Assembly: GCA_040752695.1 (NCBI GenBank)
Contig: JBFMGO010000136.1
Location: 1 to 14,173, forward strand
Direction of reading: 5' to 3'
From: a bacterium
Lineage (GTDB): Bacteria; SZUA-182; DTGQ01
DNA length: 14,173 nt
The notes below the pieces were generated by a model, which worked only from the letters and a program-made list of their open reading frames with translations, made no database searches and was not told the origin of the DNA. Of the stretch, positions 390 through 14,173 are shown piece by piece (the stretch's first letter is position 1; every line of letters begins with the position of its first letter). Position numbers and translations under genes: made by a program.

Positions 390-626
390 TCACAGCCTGT
401 CACATTCATCTGGTTCAACGTCAGCCACTTTAGAAAGGGCCTTTTCAAACTTTGAGCGATCCCCAGACTTTGCCCTTTCCTTCAGGTATTCTTCCGTATC
501 GAGGGCAGATAGCTTTTCAGCCAAAGCGGTTGTAATAAGCTGATTAATGGAGATATTCTCCCGCTTGGCTAGTACCTTGATTCTCGTATGGATCGACTCT
601 GGCAGCCTTATACTTATGGTACTCAT
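390..626 (-). CDS. Ribbon-helix-helix (CopG/HicB-like) antitoxin
   Basis: 78 aa; N-terminal 'STISIRLPESIH...LAKRENISINQLITTALAEKL' RHH signature; acidic C-terminal tail; 4-bp ATGA overlap with the PIN gene. Confidence 0.85.
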   Translation of the reverse strand: MSTISIRLPESIHTRIKVLAKRENISINQLITTALAEKLSALDTEEYLKERAKSGDRSKFEKALSKVADVEPDECDRL

Positions 627-1054
627 GACACCTCTCCAATTTCAAGTAATAGTTCTTTGGGCGTTAAAACCCGAATGCCAAAGTATTGCTCGACATTCCT
701 AAAATCTTTTTCGTTGTACGTTATGATCATATCGCATTGGGAAGTTACCGCCAATTCCAGCACCATATCATCTTTTGGGTCCTTCAGGAATGGACGCCAT
801 AGATAAAAGATCTTTCGCCACTTCGAGACGCTACAGATGTAATTGAGGATGTCGTCTATATCCTCTGCTGTTAAGGCCGTTCCTCCAATCAATTCTTTGG
901 CAACCGCTTCGTATTCAAGTAATAACGGGACAGATAGATTGATGTTAAACTTACCCTGGCCGATCATGGACAGTAACCTGAATGAAGCTCCTCGCCTCGA
1001 TTTGAGAGCGGCAATCAGTACATTTGTGTCTACGACAATCTCTGGCATTCTCAT
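623..1054 (-). CDS. PIN-domain (VapC-like, PIN_3 type) putative toxin/ribonuclease
   Basis: Motifs 'IVVDTNVLIAAL', 'LLLEYE', 'DPKDDMVLELA', 'IITYNEKDF'. Start moved from 1078 to ATG 1054 (alternative 1048) because the promoter lies at 1062-1090. Confidence 0.9.
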   Translation of the reverse strand: MRMPEIVVDTNVLIAALKSRRGASFRLLSMIGQGKFNINLSVPLLLEYEAVAKELIGGTALTAEDIDDILNYICSVSKWRKIFYLWRPFLKDPKDDMVLELAVTSQCDMIITYNEKDFRNVEQYFGIRVLTPKELLLEIGEVS

Positions 1055-1055
1055 A

Positions 1056-1079
1056 TATGGTATTGTATATGATACCATA
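1056..1079. promoter_or_regulatory. Palindromic operator, likely the antitoxin autorepression site
   Basis: TATGGTAT (1056-1063), N8, ATACCATA (1072-1079): perfect 8-bp inverted repeat overlapping the -10 element. Confidence 0.7.
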
Positions 1080-1282: not shown

Positions 1283-1861
1283 ATGAAAAAGATACTCGGA
1301 CTTGGGTTACGTCTGGCTTTTGTGTGTGCTCTGGCTGCAGGAATCCTGGCCTCTGTCTACCGGGTGACCAGCCCTATCATCGAGGAAGGTGCCAGGCAGG
1401 AGAAGCTCAGAAAGCTTCGCTTTGTGTTACCGGGGGCGGATCGGCTGGAGGTAAGGCAGATAAAAGGAAGGGAGATTACGCTGGGCTATGCGGGACAGGA
1501 ACTGGTTGAAGCTGCCATTGAGGTAGCTCCGCACGGGTACAGCGGGTCAATTCGCCTGCTGGTTGGGGTTTCGACCACAGGGAGGGTAGTGCGGCGCATC
1601 GCTGTCTTATCCGATAAGGAAACTCCGGGGCTGGGGAACAAGATCCACGATTACTGGTTCTTGCAGCAGTTTGTAGGCAAGGATGCAGAGCACCTCCAGC
1701 TTAAAAAGGATGCGCCGCAAGGGACGATAGATGCTATCTCCGCAGCTACCATCTCTTCGCGGGCTGTAACCAACGGGGTTCAGCAGGCCGTAAGGGATGT
1801 GCAGGACTTGCTGGCGGATTTATCGAGTTTACGTGAAGGAACAGCAAAAAACCGAGGATAA
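1283..1861 (+). CDS. rnfG: Rnf electron transport complex subunit G (FMN-binding)
   Basis: N-terminal TM anchor; 'GYSGSIRLLVGV', 'ETPGLG' and the flavinylation-type motif 'DAISAATISSRAV'; directly upstream of rnfE-rnfA. Confidence 0.9.
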   Translation: MKKILGLGLRLAFVCALAAGILASVYRVTSPIIEEGARQEKLRKLRFVLPGADRLEVRQIKGREITLGYAGQELVEAAIEVAPHGYSGSIRLLVGVSTTGRVVRRIAVLSDKETPGLGNKIHDYWFLQQFVGKDAEHLQLKKDAPQGTIDAISAATISSRAVTNGVQQAVRDVQDLLADLSSLREGTAKNRG

Positions 1862-1871
1862 AAACCGAGGA
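1847..1871 (+). repeat. Short tandem duplication across the rnfG stop codon
   Basis: AAAAACCGAGGA at 1847-1858 and 1860-1871. Confidence 0.7.
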
Positions 1872-1915
1872 ATAAAAATGAGAGAAGGTCCACCCTGCCG
1901 AAAGAGGAACAGATC

Positions 1916-2518
1916 ATGCCAACAACATGGAAAGACTTCACCACCGGGATCATCAGGGAAAATCCGACGCTTCGCCTCATGATCGGCTTATGTCCCACCC
2001 TGGCTGTTTCAACCACAGCTACCGGCGCTTTAGGTATGGGCCTGGCCACTACCTTTGTGCTGGTGGGGTCAAATCTGAGCATTTCCCTTTTTCGGAAGCT
2101 TATTCCCATTGAGTTGCGCATTCCCATCTTCATTGTCATTATTTCCACCTTCGTCACTACCATCGATTACGTGATGATGGCCTACTTTCCTGCAATCCAT
2201 CGCACCCTGGGGGTTTACGTCCCTTTGATCGTGGTCAACTGCATAATCCTGGGTCGCGCCGAAGCCTTTGCCTACCATCATACTGCTCTTTCATCCATCC
2301 TGGACGGCCTGGGGATGGGGACCGGGTTTACCGGCGGAATCACTCTCCTTGGGATCTTCCGTGAGGTTCTGGGCAACAACACTTTCTTCCAGGTTTCTGC
2401 CCTGGGCACTCATTTTCAGCCCATGATCTTGATGATCCTGCCTCCCGGTGCCTTCCTGCTTATTGGTTTTCTGATAGCCGGGTTAAATGCTGTCACCCGC
2501 AAAGGGGGCAAGGGATGA
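1916..2518 (+). CDS. rnfE: Rnf electron transport complex subunit E
   Basis: Polytopic membrane protein with 'ENP..LMIGLCPTLAVS', 'LRIPIFIVII', 'PLIVVNCIILGRAEAFA', 'ILPPGAFL'. Confidence 0.95.
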   Translation: MPTTWKDFTTGIIRENPTLRLMIGLCPTLAVSTTATGALGMGLATTFVLVGSNLSISLFRKLIPIELRIPIFIVIISTFVTTIDYVMMAYFPAIHRTLGVYVPLIVVNCIILGRAEAFAYHHTALSSILDGLGMGTGFTGGITLLGIFREVLGNNTFFQVSALGTHFQPMILMILPPGAFLLIGFLIAGLNAVTRKGGKG

Positions 2519-2572
2519 AGAGTAAAATGATAAATGATAAATGATGAAGGGTGAAGGGTGAAGGGCGAAGAG
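2514..2572 (+). repeat. Heptamer tandem tract in the rnfE-rnfA spacer
   Basis: (AAATGAT)x3 followed by about three TGAAGGG-like units and CGAAGAG. Confidence 0.75.
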
Positions 2573-2583
2573 GAGAACAAACC

Positions 2584-3171
2584 ATGAAGCAGATGTTTCT
2601 TATTTTTTTTGCAGCATTGATCGTCAATAATATACTTCTTGTCCGGTTTCTCGGTCTTTGCTCTTTTTTCGGCATTTCCCATAAGATAGAAAACTCTCTC
2701 AGCATGGGACTGGCGGTGACCTTTGTTATGACAATGGCCTCATTGGTCACCTGGCCCCTTTATCATTACCTGCTCAAGCCCTATAACCTGGTGTATTTGA
2801 GAACTATCTTTTTTGTACTGGTTATCGCCTCGCTGGTTCAGTTCGTGGAGATGTTCATGAAAAAAACCATGCCTGCCCTTTACCAGACTCTGGGGATCTT
2901 TCTCCCGCTGATCACCACGAACTGCGCCATTCTCGCCGCCGCTTTTCTCGGCATTGATTACAACTATACCCTGTTGCAGAGTCTGGTCTATACGGCCGGA
3001 GTTTCAGGAGGGTATGTCATGACTATCGTTATCTTTGCCTCCCTACGGGAGCGGATCGACCGTGCTCCAATTCCGCCTGCCTTTCAGGGCTATCCTATCG
3101 CTTTTATTCTTGCCAGTCTACTTTCCCTGGCTTATCTGGGATTTGTGGGTATGTTCGGCTTACAATTGTAA
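2584..3171 (+). CDS. rnfA: Rnf electron transport complex subunit A
   Basis: 'NNILLVRFLGLCSFFG', 'MGLAVTFV', 'IASLVQFVEM', 'LGIFLPLITTNCAIL'. Start set to ATG 2584, after an AGGAG RBS. Confidence 0.95.
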   Translation: MKQMFLIFFAALIVNNILLVRFLGLCSFFGISHKIENSLSMGLAVTFVMTMASLVTWPLYHYLLKPYNLVYLRTIFFVLVIASLVQFVEMFMKKTMPALYQTLGIFLPLITTNCAILAAAFLGIDYNYTLLQSLVYTAGVSGGYVMTIVIFASLRERIDRAPIPPAFQGYPIAFILASLLSLAYLGFVGMFGLQL

Positions 3172-3258
3172 GGCCAAATCGGACGAATGGTCGAATTATT
3201 ATTCTGACGTAATGAAGCTGATCATAGAGATAGGAAAAAAATGTAAGGAGAAAGAAAC

Positions 3259-3501
3259 ATGGCTGATAGAGAAAGAAAAGTCTCAGAAAATGTAGATGGA
3301 CCTTTTTATGTAGATGAAAGTTGTATCCAATGTGGTAATTGCGCTGAGGTTGCCCCTGAAAATTTTACTCAGGGTGAAGAATTTTTCTATGTCTATAAGC
3401 AGCCTGAAAACGACGAAGAAACGGAAAATTGTCAACAGGCTTTGGAAGAATGCCCTGTAGATGCCATAGGCGACGATGGAGAAAGAGGAGGCGGAGAGTA
3501 G
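3259..3501 (+). CDS. Small acidic single-cluster [4Fe-4S] ferredoxin
   Basis: 'YVDESCIQCGNC' (CxxCxxC) plus distal 'ECPVDAI'; the second cluster motif is degenerate (EVAP); AAGGAG RBS. Confidence 0.9.
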   Translation: MADRERKVSENVDGPFYVDESCIQCGNCAEVAPENFTQGEEFFYVYKQPENDEETENCQQALEECPVDAIGDDGERGGGE

Positions 3502-3632
3502 GAAAACAGGCAGAGGGCAGGGGAAAAAAGAAGAGAAAGCAGGAGATCAGGAAACGGGGAGGAGAGGGGCTGAGATAAGGAGATTCCGGGATGAGATAAG
3601 AATTCTGGAGTAAATGAAAAAGGGAATGGGAA

Positions 3633-4043
3633 TTGAAGCAATCAATCGAGCAGGTAAAAAAATTTATACTGGAGCAATCGAGCCTGGCTATTATCGGTAC
3701 TGCCGATCAGGAAGGGTTCCCTCATCTGGCTATGGAAAGAGGAGTTCGATGGGTCAGGGAAAAAACGGTTGAGTTTGAAAGCTGGTTTTGTGAAACTACT
3801 GTAAAAAATCTAAGGGAAAATCCCAAAGTTTCCGTAGCCATATTTGATCAAAAGACCCAAAAAGGATACCAACTGCTGGGCCGGATAGAATCCATCCACG
3901 AGGGCGCAATCTTAGATGGATATATCCCAGGGGAAAAACCGGGAGAGCAGGACATCCCTTCCCAGGCATATCGAATCGATATAGCTATTGAGAAGATTTT
4001 GTTTTTTTCCAGCGGACCACATTCCGATGGTGCCTTGCTCTGA
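3633..4043 (+). CDS. Pyridoxamine 5'-phosphate oxidase-like FMN-binding split-barrel protein
   Basis: 'AIIGTADQEGFPHL', 'TVKNLRENPKVSVAIFD', 'GYQLLG'; TTG start. Confidence 0.85.
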   Translation: MKQSIEQVKKFILEQSSLAIIGTADQEGFPHLAMERGVRWVREKTVEFESWFCETTVKNLRENPKVSVAIFDQKTQKGYQLLGRIESIHEGAILDGYIPGEKPGEQDIPSQAYRIDIAIEKILFFSSGPHSDGALL

Positions 4044-5306: not shown

Positions 5307-5603
5307 TCTTCTTAACTGTGCAGCGTACTTATGAAACCAGGAAAAAGACAAGGGAAAAAGCATAGATAGGGGATGATTCGATAATAAAGGTATATGAAAA
5401 AGATTACATATGCTGCAAGAAGATGCAACGGATCTTTTCTGTTTCCATCCTGCACAGCAGGGCAAGGCCATAAATTAATTATCTGATTGCAGGAAGAGTT
5501 TGTAAAGTATCCGATTTTTTCTTTATCGGGTTCTTTACCGATTCATAATCATAAGCAATATAATCATAAGCTCTCTAATCGTAGAGAACTGATAAGAATA
5601 ATC

Positions 5604-6857
5604 ATGAGTGACTTCCCTTATCCGGGCTTACGTCCTTTCCGGCGGGACGAGACGGACATTTTCTTTGGCCGGGAAGAGCAGGTGGATCAGCTTCTTGAAC
5701 GGCTTGACCAATCTCGTTTTCTGGCCGTGGTCGGCCCGTCGGGATGCGGCAAATCATCGCTGGTTCAGGCAGGTCTGTTTGCAGCCCTTGAAACCGGCTT
5801 TCTGGTCAGTGCCGGAGTGCGGTGGAGGACAGCCAAGACGCGGCCTGGTACGTGTCCCATGCGGCATCTGGCCAAAGCTCTGGTTAAGAAATCGGCCCTG
5901 GGACCGGAGAGAGGGGAAGACGACGAGAGTGCAGCTTTTTTGCTGGCTACCCTGCGAAGGGGGCCTTTGGGTCTTATTGATGCCCTCTCTATGACACTTC
6001 TACCTCAGGGTACGAATTTACTCATTCTAGTGGATCAATTCGAGGAGATCTTTCGCTACCGCCAGCAGTATAGCCTCGATGAGGCCGAAGCCTTTGTGGC
6101 TTTGCTTCTGGCCGCGACACAGCAAAAAACTCTGCCCGTATATGTGGTTATTACCATGCGGTCGGATTTTTTGGGAGATTGCGCCCTATTTCGCGGTCTT
6201 CCAGAGGCAATAGACGAGGGGCAGTTCCTGACGCCCCGTCTCAGCAGGGAACAGTGCCGGGCAGCCATTATCGGACCTGCCGAAGTATTCGGCGGCGAAG
6301 TCGAACAGGCCCTGGTCAACCGGCTCCTGAACGATATGGGAGAGGACTCCGAGCAATTACCCCTTTTTCAGCATGCCCTGATGCGTATGTGGAGAGAGGC
6401 AGGCAAAAGGGCAGAGCACCCTATCCTTACTCTCGGGGATTACGAGGCGATCGGCGGCCTGGAAAATGCCCTGTCAAATCATGCCGATGAAGCTTTCGAG
6501 GAACTGGATGAAAAGCAAAAAACTATTGCCGAAGTGCTCTTTCGCTCCTTAAGCGAGCGATCCGAAAGTCTGCGGGATACCCGCCGGCCGAGCCGGTTAT
6601 CCGAGATAGTAAAGGTGGCAGGGGTGCACCCTGAGCAGGTTAAGGAGGTAGTGGATATCTTTCGCAGACCGGACCGCAGCTTTCTTACCCCTCCTGCCGG
6701 TATCCCCCTGACCTCAGAAACAATCATCGATATCAGCCACGAGAGCCTGATTCGTCTGTGGAAGCGGCTAAACACGTGGGTGGAGGTGGAGGCAGATTCA
6801 GCCGATACCTATATTCCCGTCCCGGCATCGGCTCGTCCAATCATTACATCCATTTGA
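5604..6857 (+). pseudogene. C-terminally truncated nSTAND1-family ATPase (paralog of the gene at 10619)
   Basis: Starts 'MSDFPYPGLRPF'; Walker A GPSGCGKS; Walker B 'LILVDQFEEIF'; 'DISHESLIRLWKRL'. Similarity to the full copy stops at '...EADSADTY' (~6812); the last 14 aa are antisense peptidase sequence. No TM or WD40 part. Confidence 0.85.
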
Positions 6858-7966
6858 TAACTGGATGAATACCACACATCGAAAATGGCACTCCGTACCC
6901 CTTCATAAGGCAAAAACAAGGATGCCTCACCTTTATCATCCACCTGATACCCCAGATGAATGAAATCAGAGCCTTCATTACCCGCGGCTGCAACGATGAT
7001 TTTGCCTGGCCCCGTAAGCTCGTTCAATGCCTGCTCAAAGAGAGATGTTCCATCATGCGGCCCTAAATGGCTTCCTAAACTCATATTGATAACAACAGGC
7101 TTGCCTATAGACTGAGCCTTCCTGAAGATATAGTTTGCAGCATCGACGATCCAGGTATCCGATGCGGAACCTTCACAGGTACCGAATGAAGTAACGACAA
7201 TAATATCAGCTAAAGGAGCGATACCGGTGTAATCGGCATTATCATTGGGAGCATTTCCATTGCCTGCGGTGATACCTGCAACGTGTGTACCATGGCCCCA
7301 GGCATCTACATTATTATCCTGTTCCGAGCAATTTCCGCTGTCAATTTCCCCTGAATCGCACTCATTTCCATACGTGTAGCCCTCTGGCGGAGTCCCGTTC
7401 GGAGCACATTGATCCCAGATAGAGGCGATGCGCGTTGATCCATCGGGATTTTTAAAATCCGGATGATCGAAGTCAATACCGGTATCAATAACGCCCACAA
7501 TCACGCCCTTGCCTTTACAGGCTGCGGGCAGACCCTGTCCTTGCTGAACCTTATCGACGCCAATCTCCGGGCGGCTGACATCCAGAAGCGGCCAGTTCCT
7601 GGAAGCCAGTTCCACATATTCAATCCCATCCAATCTGCCAACAGCGTCCAGGCTCCGCAATGGAAGCCAGGCAGTGGCGATCCCCGATGGTAAAACCGTA
7701 TGGACCCGTCCGTCAGCCTTCTTAAGAGCGCTGGTGTATGAAGCATTTTTAAACTTGATCAGTACACCGAGCGTTGTTTCACCGGTCACGGGATGAGAAA
7801 AGATGGAAAAGTGATTGGCGAAAATGGATGTCTCATCAGCTTTTTTGGAAGCAATCAGATTGAGGGCAGGACTGAACCTGGCGCTGATCGCTCCAAAGGC
7901 ATTGGCCGAAACCAATGGAACCAGGAGCAAGATGCAGAGAAATAACGCTGATTTTCTACGAATCAT
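6809..7966 (-). pseudogene. Secreted S8 (subtilisin-family) serine peptidase, truncated before the catalytic Ser
   Basis: Signal peptide, propeptide, 'GVIDTGID' (Asp), 'GHGTHVAG' (His), 'INMSLG', 'AAAGNEG' (oxyanion Asn). No GTSM/GTSA motif before the stop. GGAGG RBS. Confidence 0.85.
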
Positions 7967-8977: not shown

Positions 8978-10438
8978 ATGACTGTCTTTGTTCCAGGCTA
9001 TGAGCATGACATTTTCATAAGTTATGCGCACGTCGATGATGAACCTATCCCCGGTGCAGAAGAGGGCTGGGTTTCAACTTTGGTGGGGGGACTCAAGACG
9101 CTTTTAGCCCAGAGGCTGGGCAGGAGCGATACCTTTTCTCTGTGGATGGATTATCGGTTATCCCTGCATGAGCCAATTACGCCTGAACTTCTGTCTACCA
9201 TAGAGCATTCGGCTGTACTGGTCGTTATCCTGTCACCCGGATATCTTGCCTCAGAGTGGTGTCAGAGGGAGAGAAACACCTTCTTGCAGATGGTAAGAGA
9301 CCGGCCTCGTCGCAATTCGCGGATATTTGTCGTGGAGCGTGATAAAATTGAAACAAGCGAGCGGCCGGCTGAATTCAGAGACCTTTTGGGGTATCGTTTC
9401 TGGGTTGAAGACAAAGGATGCAGAACGCCTCGTATTCTGGGTGAGCCAAGGCCAAATCCCAGTGATCCCAAAAGCCAGCCTTATTACGACCGGCTCAATG
9501 ATCTCAGCCACGACATGGCCGAGGAATTGAAGCGGATCAGAGAGTCAGTTGAAAGCCCTGATGCAGAAAGGGAGAGAGTCGATACGCGGCCTGCTGTTTT
9601 CCTGGCCGAAGTCACCGATGATCTGGTTATTCAGCGTGATGAGGTGATGCGCTACCTGGTCCAGGCTGGCCTGAGAGTGCTGCCTGAAACTCAGCTCTAT
9701 TTCAGTGAGCCGGCTGCTTTTCAAAAGGCAGTGGATAGAGACCTTGAAGAATGTAAAATCTTTGTCCAGTTGCTGAGCGGCCTGACCGGCAGAAGGTGTG
9801 CGCATGGGCCAAGCCACATCTGCCTTCAATATCAACTGGCTCTGAAAGCAGGAAAACAGATTCTCCAGTGGCGCAGTCCCTCATTGGACACGGCGACCAC
9901 AGCGGACAAGGATCATCGCAATCTTCTGGAAGGTGAAACAGTTCTGGCAGTCGGGCTGGAGGAATTCAAGCGGGAGGTTGTAGAGCTGGCACTGGCCAAG
10001 CCTGCTCCCAGGGTCAGTGCGGTATGTACCCTTGTTTTTCTGGATGCAAACAGGGAGGATGATTCATTGGCCCGGGAGGTAGTCAGGGTGATGGAAAAAA
10101 ATGAGATCGGCTATGTCCTGCCACTTCGCAGCGGCCACCCGGCAGATGTTCGGAAGGATTTAGAGGAGTGCCTCCTTGATTCCGATGGAGTAATCGTCGT
10201 TTATGGCACCGTTACTCCGGTCTGGGCACGGGAGCAGCTTCGATATTGCCGCAAGATCATGTACAAGCGCGAGGAGCCCCTCAAAGCCATAGCCGTTTAT
10301 GAAGGCCCGCCACCAGGGCCCAAAGACCCTTTGAATATCGCTCTCCCCGGTATGCAAATCATTCAGTGCCCGATATGCTCCCTTGAAAGAGCGCTTCAGC
10401 CCTTTTTCGAGTCGCTTAAAAGAGAAGAAAGGCGATAA
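8978..10438 (+). CDS. TIR-domain protein (N-terminal TIR_2-type domain plus two further TIR-like alpha/beta domains)
   Basis: 'DIFISYAHVD', 'LWMD', 'SAVLVVILSPGYLASEWCQRE' (Glu at the TIR catalytic position). Two downstream units share VFL...VLP...DLEEC. Strong AGGAGAGG RBS. Confidence 0.9.
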   Translation: MTVFVPGYEHDIFISYAHVDDEPIPGAEEGWVSTLVGGLKTLLAQRLGRSDTFSLWMDYRLSLHEPITPELLSTIEHSAVLVVILSPGYLASEWCQRERNTFLQMVRDRPRRNSRIFVVERDKIETSERPAEFRDLLGYRFWVEDKGCRTPRILGEPRPNPSDPKSQPYYDRLNDLSHDMAEELKRIRESVESPDAERERVDTRPAVFLAEVTDDLVIQRDEVMRYLVQAGLRVLPETQLYFSEPAAFQKAVDRDLEECKIFVQLLSGLTGRRCAHGPSHICLQYQLALKAGKQILQWRSPSLDTATTADKDHRNLLEGETVLAVGLEEFKREVVELALAKPAPRVSAVCTLVFLDANREDDSLAREVVRVMEKNEIGYVLPLRSGHPADVRKDLEECLLDSDGVIVVYGTVTPVWAREQLRYCRKIMYKREEPLKAIAVYEGPPPGPKDPLNIALPGMQIIQCPICSLERALQPFFESLKREERR

Positions 10439-10618
10439 ATAGTACGCCACCAGCCATTCCCCTTACGGAACTGCCCCAGCATAGCCAAGTCAAGCTATAT
10501 GTTATCTATTATCTGATTGCAGTAAGAGTTCAAAAAATTCCGATTTTTCCTTTAACGGAGTATAATCCAAGGAACATAATCATAAGAAACACAGCCTGGA
10601 AAGTTGATACGCGAAACC

Positions 10619-13600
10619 ATGAGTGACTTTCCCTATCCGGGGCTTCGCCCTTTTCGGCAGGACGAGACAGACATTTTTTTTGGTCGTGAAGGCCAGGTAG
10701 ACCAGCTTCTCGAGAGACTCGAGAAATCACGGTTTCTGGCTGTACTGGGCCCATCTGGGTGCGGGAAATCCTCTCTTTTGAATGCAGGTATGTTGGCCAG
10801 CCTCGAAATCGGCTTTATGGCCAGTGCCGGAGCGCAATGGCGAACGGCCACCATGAAACCCGGCAATTCTCCCATAAGGGAATTAGCCAGGGCCCTTTTG
10901 AAGGATGAGTCCCTTGGGCCGGAGTGGGGCGAGTACAGGGAAAATGTGGCTTATCTGCAGGCGGTTCTGCGAAGGGGGCCTCTTGGCCTGGTTGAAGCAC
11001 TCAAAGAAACGCCCCTGCCAAAAGGCACGAATGTGCTGATTCTGGTTGACCAGTTTGAGGAGATCTTCCGCTACCGCCAGCAGGGCAGTGCTGATGAGGC
11101 TGAAGCCTTTGTATCTCTTCTTCTGAATTCTGCCAGGCAAAGGGAAGTCCCCGTGTATGTGGTCATTGCCATGCGTACGGACTTTCTGGGCGATTGCAGC
11201 CTTTTAAGTGGCCTTCCTGAGGCGATAAATGAGGGCCAGTTTCTCATCCCGCGCCTCGATAGAGAGCAAAGCCGGGCGGCCATAGAAGGACCTGCCGGAG
11301 TGTTCCAGGGAGAAATTGAGCCTGCTCTCGTGAACAGGCTCCTCAATGACATGCAAAAGGATCCGGATCAATTGCCCCTCATGCAGCATGCCCTGATGCG
11401 GATGTGGACCCTTGCCCTGGCTAGAGGTGCTGCTTCTCCCACCCTCACCTCAGGGGATTATGAGGCCATCGGCGGTCTGGAGAAAGCCCTGTCAAACCAT
11501 GCTGACGAGGCTTTCGATGAATTGGAGGAGAGGCAAAAGCCAATAGCAGAGACGCTTTTTCGCTCATTGACCGAGCGGTCCATCACCAGGCGGGATACCC
11601 GCCGTCCTACAAGGCTTTCAAAGGTAGCTGCGATAACCGGTGTAGACCCGGAGGAAGTGGCCAAAGTAGTAGAAGTCTTCCGCCAGCCTGGCCGCAGCTT
11701 TCTCACTCCCTCTGTCAGAGAGCCCCTGTTGCCTGAAACCATAATCGATATCAGCCACGAGAGCCTGATTCGCCAATGGGAACGATTAAATGGATGGGTT
11801 GAGGCAGAGGCAGTTTCAGCGGGCGAGTATTACCGGCTGGAGCAGACCGCTCACCTGTGGAAAGAGGGAGTCGCTGAATTGTGGGGCGGGCTCGATCTTC
11901 AAAACGCCCTGGCCTGGAAGGATCGCCAGCATCCCACGCGAGAATGGGCAAACCGCTATGGCACGGATTTCGACTTGGTCATGGAGTTTCTCACGAAAAG
12001 CCAAAATCACTGGGAAGAGGAAAAAAAGAGGAAAAAGGAGTCCGCACAACGGGAATTGAAGTTAAAGCAGGCCAAAAAACGTATGGCCTTGACCCTTGTT
12101 GGGCTGGTAATAGCCTTATGCCTGGTTTTTTGGGCGCTTTCAGAGAGGGAGAAAGCCAGGAAGGCTGAAGATTTTATCTGTCTTCATCTTTTTAAATCCT
12201 ATCTTAAGCAGGCATCCTTGCTGGCAGAGAATGATAATTACGAGCATGCCCGTGAGACTCTCAGGAGCAGCCGCACGCTTGATCCGCAAATCCAGCACAT
12301 CCAGCCGGAACTGCTGCTGAGCAGAAAGCTGCTTGACTGGTTTGTCAACACGAAAGGCGGCAAGGCTGCAAGGACCTATCAATTAAGGGATGACAGGCAC
12401 CTCGGTGACATACGTCTTTATGATGTAGCAGTCAGTCCGGATGGCCACCTTTTGGCAGCCATTGGAGAGGAAGGCACTGTTGCTCTCTTTGATCTGGACA
12501 GTGCGAGAGTAGTGGGGAGGTGGCAGGTATCATCGGCGGAAACAAAAGATGCGTTTCGCATCTGGGGAAGCATAGCCTTTCATCCTGATGGCAAGCGGCT
12601 GATAACAGCCGGGGATGGCCGGGGTATTGTATTGTTGAGTGTACCGGACGGGAAAAAACTGGATGTGTGGCAGACACGGGGTAAAATATGGGATCTTGCT
12701 CTCAGTCCGGATGGTAAATGGCTGGCAACTGGCGGCACTGATCCCAATGTGACAATCCGGGACGTGGAAACGGGAAAGGTAATACGTATTCTTGAAGGGC
12801 ATCATAATGAAATCAATGGCCTTTCCTTTAGCCCTGATGGAAGGTTTCTGGCCAGTGCATCTGCTGATCAGAATGCTATCATATGGGAATGGGATCTGAA
12901 AAAATGGAAGTGCAGGCATGTTCTCTGCGGGCATACAGACGAAGTTGCAGAAGTTGTCTTCAGCCCTGACAGCCGCATCCTGGCAACCGGAGGCGAAGAT
13001 AAAAATATCCTCCTGTGGGATGTGGAGTCAGGAAGACAAAAAGGTATACTGCAAGGCCATAGCAATGAAGTATACGGCCTTGCTTTTATCAATCACCGCT
13101 ATCTCGCCTCAGCCAGTCGTGATCGCACGGTGAGGATATGGGATGTAGACCTCAGCCTGAGGCAGGATCATCTCAGTATACCTGTATGGGTACTCCAGGG
13201 GCATAGAGCATTCATAAACCGCCTGACTGCATTCGGCAATCAACTTTTCAGCGCAGGCGACGACCATAAGGTGCTCAGGTGGGATATTCCATCGAAGATA
13301 ATGCCGGAAGATATAAAAATGCTCGATTTCTCTGGTGATGGTCGCGGCTATGAACCGCGCTCCTGCGCCATTGCTCCGGATGGCTCCGCACTGGCCGTGC
13401 AGTTTTCCAGCGGCAGGCTTCGCCTCTATGCGTTGCCTGATACCCGATTGCTGTGGGAGAGTCCAGGAGTACGGACGAAAAGGCGAAAAGAAGAAGAATC
13501 ACCAGCCAGGGAGCCGGAAACTGAAGAGCCGGGAGCTGAAGTGATAAGCCGGCTTATCTTCAGCTCCGATGGTCAAAGTCTGGCCCTGGCCAATTACGAT

Positions 13601-14173
13601 GATCCCAATATAAGTATCTGGCAGGCCAGGAGCGGCCGATTGATGCGGATCTTCAAAGGTCATAAGGGAGGTGTTCTAGGCCTGGCCTTCTCCCCGGATG
13701 GCCGATTGCTGGCTACTGCCGGTTTAGACGGCAAAATCGGCATCTTTGAAAGAGACAAGGAAAACGGCCGTTTCTATTCTGCCCATGAAAGGGCGGTCTT
13801 TTCAGTGGCTTTCAGCAGGGACTGCCGGCAGCTGCTGAGCGCGGGGGAGGATGGCACGGCAAGACTCTGGGATCTTAAAACCTGGTCCTCCGGGCCAATT
13901 CTGCGGCAAGTCTTCCCCGTTTCAGAGGACAGAATATACTGGGCAGCATTCAGCCCTGATGAAAGCAAGATCGGTTTGGTCGGACGGGATACGATGGTTC
14001 ATATCCTGAGAGCCAGTGACGGGAGAAAAGAAAGGATACTGCCCGGCCACGAAAGTAGTATCTACCGCATTGCCTTCAGTCCTGACGGCGGGCAGGTCGT
14101 TACCGTGAGTAAAGATGCCACGCTGCGGTTATGGGACCTGGAAAACGAAGAAGAGCTTTTTGCTTTGCGTCTG
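10619..14173 (+). CDS. nSTAND1 ATPase - transmembrane helix - WD40 repeat protein (NLR-like), partial at the 3' end
   Basis: Open frame from ATG 10619 to the window end (1185 codons, no stop, so not in the ORF track). 'MSDFPYPGLRPF', Walker A GPSGCGKS, Walker B 'LILVDQFEEIF', charged helix, TM 'MALTLVGLVIALCLVFWAL' (12083-12139), then about 13 WD40 repeats (GH...FSPDG...WD) from ~12410. Confidence 0.95.
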   Translation, partial: MSDFPYPGLRPFRQDETDIFFGREGQVDQLLERLEKSRFLAVLGPSGCGKSSLLNAGMLASLEIGFMASAGAQWRTATMKPGNSPIRELARALLKDESLGPEWGEYRENVAYLQAVLRRGPLGLVEALKETPLPKGTNVLILVDQFEEIFRYRQQGSADEAEAFVSLLLNSARQREVPVYVVIAMRTDFLGDCSLLSGLPEAINEGQFLIPRLDREQSRAAIEGPAGVFQGEIEPALVNRLLNDMQKDPDQLPLMQHALMRMWTLALARGAASPTLTSGDYEAIGGLEKALSNHADEAFDELEERQKPIAETLFRSLTERSITRRDTRRPTRLSKVAAITGVDPEEVAKVVEVFRQPGRSFLTPSVREPLLPETIIDISHESLIRQWERLNGWVEAEAVSAGEYYRLEQTAHLWKEGVAELWGGLDLQNALAWKDRQHPTREWANRYGTDFDLVMEFLTKSQNHWEEEKKRKKESAQRELKLKQAKKRMALTLVGLVIALCLVFWALSEREKARKAEDFICLHLFKSYLKQASLLAENDNYEHARETLRSSRTLDPQIQHIQPELLLSRKLLDWFVNTKGGKAARTYQLRDDRHLGDIRLYDVAVSPDGHLLAAIGEEGTVALFDLDSARVVGRWQVSSAETKDAFRIWGSIAFHPDGKRLITAGDGRGIVLLSVPDGKKLDVWQTRGKIWDLALSPDGKWLATGGTDPNVTIRDVETGKVIRILEGHHNEINGLSFSPDGRFLASASADQNAIIWEWDLKKWKCRHVLCGHTDEVAEVVFSPDSRILATGGEDKNILLWDVESGRQKGILQGHSNEVYGLAFINHRYLASASRDRTVRIWDVDLSLRQDHLSIPVWVLQGHRAFINRLTAFGNQLFSAGDDHKVLRWDIPSKIMPEDIKMLDFSGDGRGYEPRSCAIAPDGSALAVQFSSGRLRLYALPDTRLLWESPGVRTKRRKEEESPAREPETEEPGAEVISRLIFSSDGQSLALANYDDPNISIWQARSGRLMRIFKGHKGGVLGLAFSPDGRLLATAGLDGKIGIFERDKENGRFYSAHERAVFSVAFSRDCRQLLSAGEDGTARLWDLKTWSSGPILRQVFPVSEDRIYWAAFSPDESKIGLVGRDTMVHILRASDGRKERILPGHESSIYRIAFSPDGGQVVTVSKDATLRLWDLENEEELFALRL

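Follow-up and report, generated by a model that had tools for sequence, protein, structure and literature searches.

How does a STAND (signal transduction ATPase with numerous domains) protein act if it carries no effector of its own? The question is raised by contig JBFMGO010000136.1, which we analysed over its entire 14,173 nt (the window) and which belongs to a bacterium of GTDB lineage SZUA-182; DTGQ01 (assembly GCA_040752695.1; 6.05 Mb in 239 contigs). Its forward strand carries, at 8978..10438, a gene for a 486-residue protein with three TIR-fold domains and, downstream of it, a gene for an nSTAND1 NTPase that continues through one predicted membrane helix into a WD40 propeller. A first-pass annotation of this DNA had proposed a split module resembling nucleotide-binding leucine-rich-repeat receptors (NLRs), with a multi-TIR effector and an effector-less receptor. 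We arrive at a related proposal, in which we place slightly more belief than doubt: an NLR-like conflict or cell-death module whose TIR protein would be both the effector in trans and the adaptor.

The receptor and the triple-TIR protein

The STAND open reading frame begins at 10604 (TTG) or, more likely, at 10619 (ATG), and is still open at the contig end (14173, forward strand). From the ATG it reads MSDF-PYPGL, with residue 5 as the first of nSTAND1. A stop codon in the same frame is found a short way upstream, and there is therefore no space for an N-terminal domain, in agreement with the first-pass claim that the protein starts at PYPGL without an effector. The NTPase module (10619..11920) matches nSTAND1 (PF20703) with 340 bits against a cut-off of 27.1, from residue 10, and the protein also matches WD40. 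Its Walker A (GPSGCGKS, 10748-10771) and Walker B (DQFEE, 11048-11062) motifs belong to a pattern, G-x-S-G-x-G-K with DQFEE, that is invariant in 50/50 STAND partners of related TIR proteins. A structural model of the module (predicted template-modelling score 0.87) has Cdc6/Orc, NRC and Apaf-1 as its nearest folds.

Between the NTPase and the propeller, after a basic coiled segment, lies a single hydrophobic helix (12083..12139; residues 494-512 of the TTG frame; Kyte-Doolittle hydropathy (KD) 2.66). The WD40 sensor region (12419..14173) is cut by the contig end; orthologues are about 45-55 C-terminal residues longer. The protein thus has the nSTAND1-TM-WD40 architecture proposed earlier, its membrane helix being predicted. 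A helix after the NTPase recurs in 57/62 partners at KD ≥1.5 (47 at KD ≥1.8), with 4.5 basic residues before it and 2.3 after it, a positive-inside bias that suggests a cytoplasmic NTPase and an outward-facing sensor. The sensor diverges faster than the NTPase: identity is 59 vs 82% to the orthologue L084 and 47 vs 83% to the orthologue L085.

What does the upstream gene contribute? In Pfam, the TIR protein matches TIR_2 (61.8 bits, cut-off 28, residues 43-142) and, below cut-off, DUF4062 (20.2 bits against 24.7, residues 207-286). An AlphaFold2 model built from a 97-row alignment (pLDDT, predicted local distance difference test, 88.7) has three alpha/beta domains, D1, D2 and D3, each of which matches solved TIR domains (RPP1, Z 13.8; SARM1, Z 11.3; RPS4/RRS1, Z 12.7). 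For D3, the scores of small GTPase and receiver folds are only a little lower than those of TIR. Foldseek with the whole 486-residue model gave poor global matches, and a wide VIA search separated the three domains. In profile-profile comparison D2 and D3 match weakly (probability 23%, E 9e-4) and the pairs with D1 are not significant, so the kinship of the three rests on fold.

Only D1 has a catalytic Glu. D1 (8999..9553, forward strand) is a TIR resembling the FxsC-N type and a predicted NADase; its top NCBIfam match is FxsC_Nterm (E 1.5e-12, 47.8 bits, below the cut-off of 130). It combines the TIR fold with a Glu in helix C, in W94-C-Q-R-E98 (Glu98 codon, 9269-9271), the WCxxE glutamate that the first-pass annotation had pointed out. 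This Glu is kept in 97/97 close homologues, 47/50 homologues from genomes and 117/133 cluster representatives, and D1 is probably an active TIR with NADase function. D2 (9584..10000, forward strand) is DUF4062/NIR-like and lacks the catalytic Glu of NIR/DUF4062 NADases: its LQY aligns to the LEY (the Glu of ITELEY) of a strong DUF4062 domain, which places Gln284 (9827-9829) on the Glu. D3 (10022..10432, forward strand) has W416-x3-Gln420 (10235-10237). Gln occupies these positions in 145/150 representatives for D2 and 128/150 for D3. In the accessible text on characterised DUF4062/NIR proteins, changing Glu to Gln abolishes defence and NAD+ depletion (10.64898/2026.09.04.749371). Because Gln stands at the Glu site and this exchange kills NIR activity, D2 and D3 most likely represent conserved pseudo-enzymes. 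The "multi-TIR effector" of the first-pass annotation therefore holds for the fold, with three TIR domains, and not for catalysis, with one probably active TIR and two Glu-to-Gln pseudo-TIRs.

Linkage and exchange of parts across the family

Is the pairing a habit of the family? There were 715 homologues of the TIR protein among 8000 scored, including one 82% identical (P0002), and a GTDB scan gave 248 relatives, of which the best 79 were studied as loci. In nine of these 79 the sequence runs out at the TIR gene or no more than 400 nt beyond it, and linkage was counted on the other 70. In 66/70, an nSTAND1 of the same clade (50-69% identical) starts within 233 nt downstream, and in 59 of the 66 the PYPG motif lies within 60 nt of the TIR stop. 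Of the other four loci, three have none, and in one inserted genes separate the nSTAND1 from the TIR gene by 2.2 kb. The hosts of the loci include Gamma-, Beta- and Alphaproteobacteria, Acidobacteriota, Planctomycetota, Bacteroidota/Chlorobia, Desulfobacterales and Gemmatimonadota. The linkage to effector-less STAND genes on which the first-pass proposal had been staked is therefore borne out.

Searching GTDB from the STAND side yielded 64 loci, three with too little upstream DNA; 48 of the remaining 61 have D1/D2/D3 matches within 1.5 kb, in a set for which some centre genomes were picked as pair carriers and one scan gave loci for 30/43 matches. Of the 13 without a near TIR, three are neighbours of another TIR-STAND pair, and in two a TIR gene or a fragment of one sits a little beyond this distance. 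In metagenomes the TIR gene is present at 13/18 informative STAND loci, 5 of 23 being too short. TIR and STAND distances correlate across 50 pairs (r 0.85; 0/2000 permutations), which shows co-inheritance rather than binding, as shared descent alone can give such a value. No TIR-nSTAND1 fusion occurs among 11 longer homologues, which is weak evidence. Given the linkage in all three sets and the lack of fusions, the best inference is that the TIR protein would supply the effector in trans. A single TIR-STAND gene split by a frameshift was considered and rejected: the reading frames are separate in 66 loci, and the same 11 homologues carry no nSTAND1. On a distant Bacteroidota branch (L198, L206, L207), a D1+D2-like protein stands ahead of an effector-less nSTAND1, an arrangement that suggests an old pairing.

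The family is large and reaches many phyla: a D2-D3 profile finds 1959 representatives (50% identity clustering, E≤1e-30). Of the best 150 of these, 148 end with D2-D3 at the C-terminus, and 22 are extended at the N-terminus (kinases, EAD8, CHAT, caspase, PNPase, AAA_35 and further TIRs); one further homologue carries EAD1 and trypsin in front. EAD8 and EAD1 were seen only on some TIR-side homologues. The front-end domains (kinase, EAD, trypsin, CHAT, caspase, PNPase) are the effector set of known conflict systems, and in L189 and L190 even D1 is replaced by another Glu-bearing TIR. D2-D3 stays constant while front ends swap and thus fits an adaptor role; we infer that this pair may serve as adaptor or scaffold. 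The locus L205 (958-3417) has D1-D2 fused to about 500 residues without a Pfam match and no D3.

On the STAND side it is the C-terminal part that varies: among 63 partners, 39 end in WD40, two in TPR, two in RHS and one in LRR, and 19 have no assignment. Loci L018, L020 and L068 have a short sensor, the C-terminal 170 residues after the membrane helix, with no Pfam match, and for that of L020 there was no usable atlas match. In the branch of L087, L090 (TPR sensor) and L091, a predicted outer-membrane beta-barrel gene (Phenol_MetA_deg) comes next downstream. In L097 (2541-3986; the locus scanned), L098 and L103, an effector-less nSTAND1-WD40 follows a gene for a membrane GAF-adenylate/guanylate cyclase and not a TIR gene, and the atlas holds cyclase+DUF4062 clusters in Bacteroidota.

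Occurrence is patchy: 2/13 genomes in the host's order, 22/55 in the family of genome G063, where the pair is enriched, 10/101 Isosphaeraceae, 10/301 Bacteroidota and 3/251 Acidobacteriota, in counts that include the centre genomes and score few candidates per genome in the large sets. The family of G063, to which L067 belongs, is probably Beggiatoaceae. A genome of the host's own family (G005) keeps the pair. Orphan STANDs also occur, and STAND genes outnumber TIR genes 5 to 2 in G352 and 3 to 2 in G358.

In the window, the two genes are co-oriented and separated, without overlap, by a leader of 180 nt (10439..10618, forward strand) that has one weak promoter-like match and no terminator-like site. 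A part of about 110 nt is similar to the leader of a second nSTAND1 gene (5604..6857, forward strand), and a similar motif lies ahead of the L085 STAND. Common to the three genes is TGATTGCA...AAGAGTT/AAAAGTT...CCGATT (window 10508-10600 and 5478-5600; L085, 3860-3995). The second copy is of the same clade, 70% identical, with no TIR gene upstream; the host genome has a single triple-TIR gene. It is interrupted at about 6811, ahead of the parts for the membrane helix and sensor, and a convergent subtilase (S8) gene outside the module (6809..7966, reverse strand) is broken at the same junction (6811-6818). One deletion, or an assembly mis-join, explains both. With the subtilase gene cut at the same point, and with no trace in the rest of the genome of the 3' part that this gene lacks, we do not accept the short copy as a natural sensor-less form. 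Short STANDs of 435 and 454 residues, 88% identical to each other, directly follow the full STAND-WD40 in L084 (6245-7552) and L085 (7847-9211) and end just past the NTPase; they may represent a shared pseudogene or else a sensor-less helper that has been conserved.

Elsewhere in the window are a PIN_3 gene of toxin-antitoxin type (623-1078, reverse strand) and Rnf-like rnfG (FMN_bind), putative rnfE/rnfA-like, ferredoxin and PNPOx_N genes (1283-4043); 3190-4038 has a 76-80% identical paralogue on contig C193. Two nSTAND1-like proteins of more distant kinship are encoded on contigs C17 and C70 of the host genome; their open frames extend for about 220-230 residues ahead of the NTPase, and they are possibly of effector-fused type.

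A proposed mechanism and its rivals

How might the two proteins work together? STAND proteins are known to oligomerise and TIR domains to be activated by clustering. In the module that we favour, the variable C-terminal domain, here WD40, would detect a cue, perhaps from an invader, usually from beyond the one membrane helix and so probably in the periplasm. The cytoplasmic NTPase, receptor and switch in one protein, would exchange nucleotide and oligomerise. Having no effector, it would act by binding the co-encoded triple-TIR protein, whose D2-D3 pair would gather D1 and any fused front effector. Clustering would then switch on the predicted NADase of D1, leading to NAD+ depletion or to an ADP-ribose-type signal.

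Several observations weigh against this proposal. The helix is cleanly deleted in frame in L006 and L041, both still intact pairs, and the STAND protein has no EAD or TIR that would account for docking. The two closest STAND orthologues, in L084 and L085 (83%), have no TIR gene directly upstream; in L084, where the subtilase and lipoprotein genes are also present and synteny otherwise holds, the STAND follows at once. D1 lacks its Glu in a number of pairs from Bacteroidota and Planctomycetota (L195, L197, L116, L167), and those of Bacteroidota have cNMP-binding and cyclase genes among their neighbours. Finally, the defence role suggested by the first-pass annotation finds no support in the neighbourhood: PADLOC (E≤1e-12) matched 12/112 genes in the upstream 4 kb of 40 loci and 17/117 control genes from 20 arbitrary 8-kb regions of carrier genomes, a crude comparison that used simple longest-ORF (open reading frame) calls and the upstream side only. 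Nor does the pair match any PADLOC 2.0 system model, giving only generic WD40, P-loop and weak TIR matches.

Could the same two-protein receptor serve envelope or environmental signalling, through second messengers or in filament or aggregate development, instead of immunity? The missing defence-island signal would fit, as would the membrane helix of most partners with its positive-inside bias, the Bacteroidota neighbours (a TLC-HEAT-cNMP protein, a GAF adenylate cyclase, outer-membrane barrels) and the pairs that keep three domains with a D1 lacking its Glu. We nevertheless think this reading unlikely, since the pair is patchy even within the host's order, its sensors diverge fast, caspase, trypsin, EAD and PNPase domains are fused to it, and most representatives keep the Glu of D1. 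A more improbable alternative is chemical coupling: D2 and D3 would bind nucleotide, sense NAD+, ADP-ribose (ADPR) or cyclic ADP-ribose (cADPR) and regulate D1 allosterically, with the STAND protein linked, upstream or downstream, by a diffusible molecule. Specific retention of Gln in both domains is not what random decay would leave, and Gln would keep substrate contact without cleavage; a STAND without a docking domain and orphan STANDs that outnumber TIR genes in several genomes also fit. The strict gene order, with the STAND start near or overlapping the TIR stop, is better suited to a stoichiometric complex, and nSTAND1 is not known to make a signal.

The pair in this window might also be a loosened or decaying remnant, its STAND gene having its own leader and acting alone, or having ceased to act with the TIR gene. 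The 180-nt gap, the leader common to TIR-less copies, the orthologues without a TIR gene and the broken paralogue 2 kb away all point that way, whereas both reading frames are intact with all key residues present, the 82%-identical TIR homologue exists and a genome of the same family keeps the pair. We regard such local uncoupling as very improbable.

For the NLR-like module that we favour, one further step can be taken, and we take it tentatively, as we consider it rather unlikely. The STAND protein may be a Toll-like, single-pass membrane NLR that senses an outside cue through an exchangeable propeller, LRR, TPR or RHS domain. Without a death-like adaptor, it would draw in a cytoplasmic adaptor-effector by way of that protein's tandem Glu-to-Gln pseudo-TIRs, and the several sensors of a genome would use one TIR protein in common. 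Plant sensor NLRs share helper NLRs in a comparable way, and a pseudo-TIR adaptor would have a parallel in animal Toll signalling with its enzymatically dead TIR adaptors. The family would then supply a membrane-spanning STAND sensor together with a pseudo-TIR adaptor. Glu98, Gln284, Gln420 and the Walker A Lys are defined residues that make the module directly testable.

Comparison with known systems

Is the pair new? The first-pass annotation had allowed that related pairs might already be catalogued, and they are. Kaur et al. 2021, who named nSTAND1, list 103 occurrences of TIR+DrHyd in the accessible part of their source data, and 30/30 at places 6-35 precede an effector-less nSTAND1 (PMC8195603). 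The gene order and architectures of those rows are the same as here, including Pkinase-fused forms and cNMP neighbours: our pair is a TIR + DUF4062/DrHyd-like (+TIR) gene (TIR + DrHyd/DUF4062-like + TIR in their notation) followed by an effector-less nSTAND1-TM-propeller. One row, isolate 4572_84 (1231 residues), agrees with our L051 in isolate name and STAND length only. Section 7 of the main text and the term searches gave no description of the pair, of Glu-to-Gln pseudo-domains or of a mechanism, so that in the accessible text the pair is merely listed, without name or experiment. The literature searched, outside which most subscription papers lie, likewise gave neither. The pair is thus real and conserved but already catalogued and not categorically new, and the prior listing in the 2021 source table limits the value of our finding. 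To this listing we add the pairing of Glu-to-Gln pseudo-TIRs and its constant position, the orphan sensors and the missing defence-island signal.

Among described systems, the TIR-ParA apoptosis systems, which are computational only in the accessible text, come close (10.64898/2026.10.19.760177). Their FxsC (TIR-FC + FxsC-C)/FxsT pairs have an active TIR and an inactive C-terminal TIR upstream and a STAND sensor, including nSTAND1, downstream. They are defined, however, by the ParA domain of the partner, and there is no ParA match here among the best 25 of 63 Pfam families. Where that work describes forms that lack ParA, TIR and STAND are fused directly, whereas our pair consists of separate genes; D1 falls below the FxsC_Nterm cut-off, and the FxsC description, as far as it is accessible, contains no DUF4062-like pseudo-domain.

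Avs and other bacterial NLRs, such as PsAvs2 with its NIR effector, share with the pair a STAND switch, a repeat sensor and an NAD+-cleaving TIR-fold effector (10.64898/2026.09.04.749371; PMC13581612). In the accessible accounts, characterised Avs proteins have the effector built into the STAND chain itself and recognise proteins of phages (PMC13581612), and the PsAvs2 effector is fused N-terminally with its NIR Glu intact. Here, in contrast, effector and STAND are encoded by two genes, Gln replaces Glu in the NIR-like domain, and the STAND protein has a membrane helix before its sensor, unlike Avs. With no domain ahead of its NTPase, it has neither the fused effector of Avs and bNACHT proteins nor the shared adaptor of EAD systems.

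An effector in trans to a STAND sensor is also found in the EAD-coupled bDLD3-TIR + bDLD3-STAND-FGS systems (PMC8195603) and in the Lysobacter gasdermin NLR-CARD system, which is coupled through CARD-like domains (PMC10312443). As far as the accessible descriptions go, these systems couple by death-like adaptor domains, whereas our STAND protein has none at its N-terminus, and for that reason its mode of docking to the triple-TIR protein would be new.

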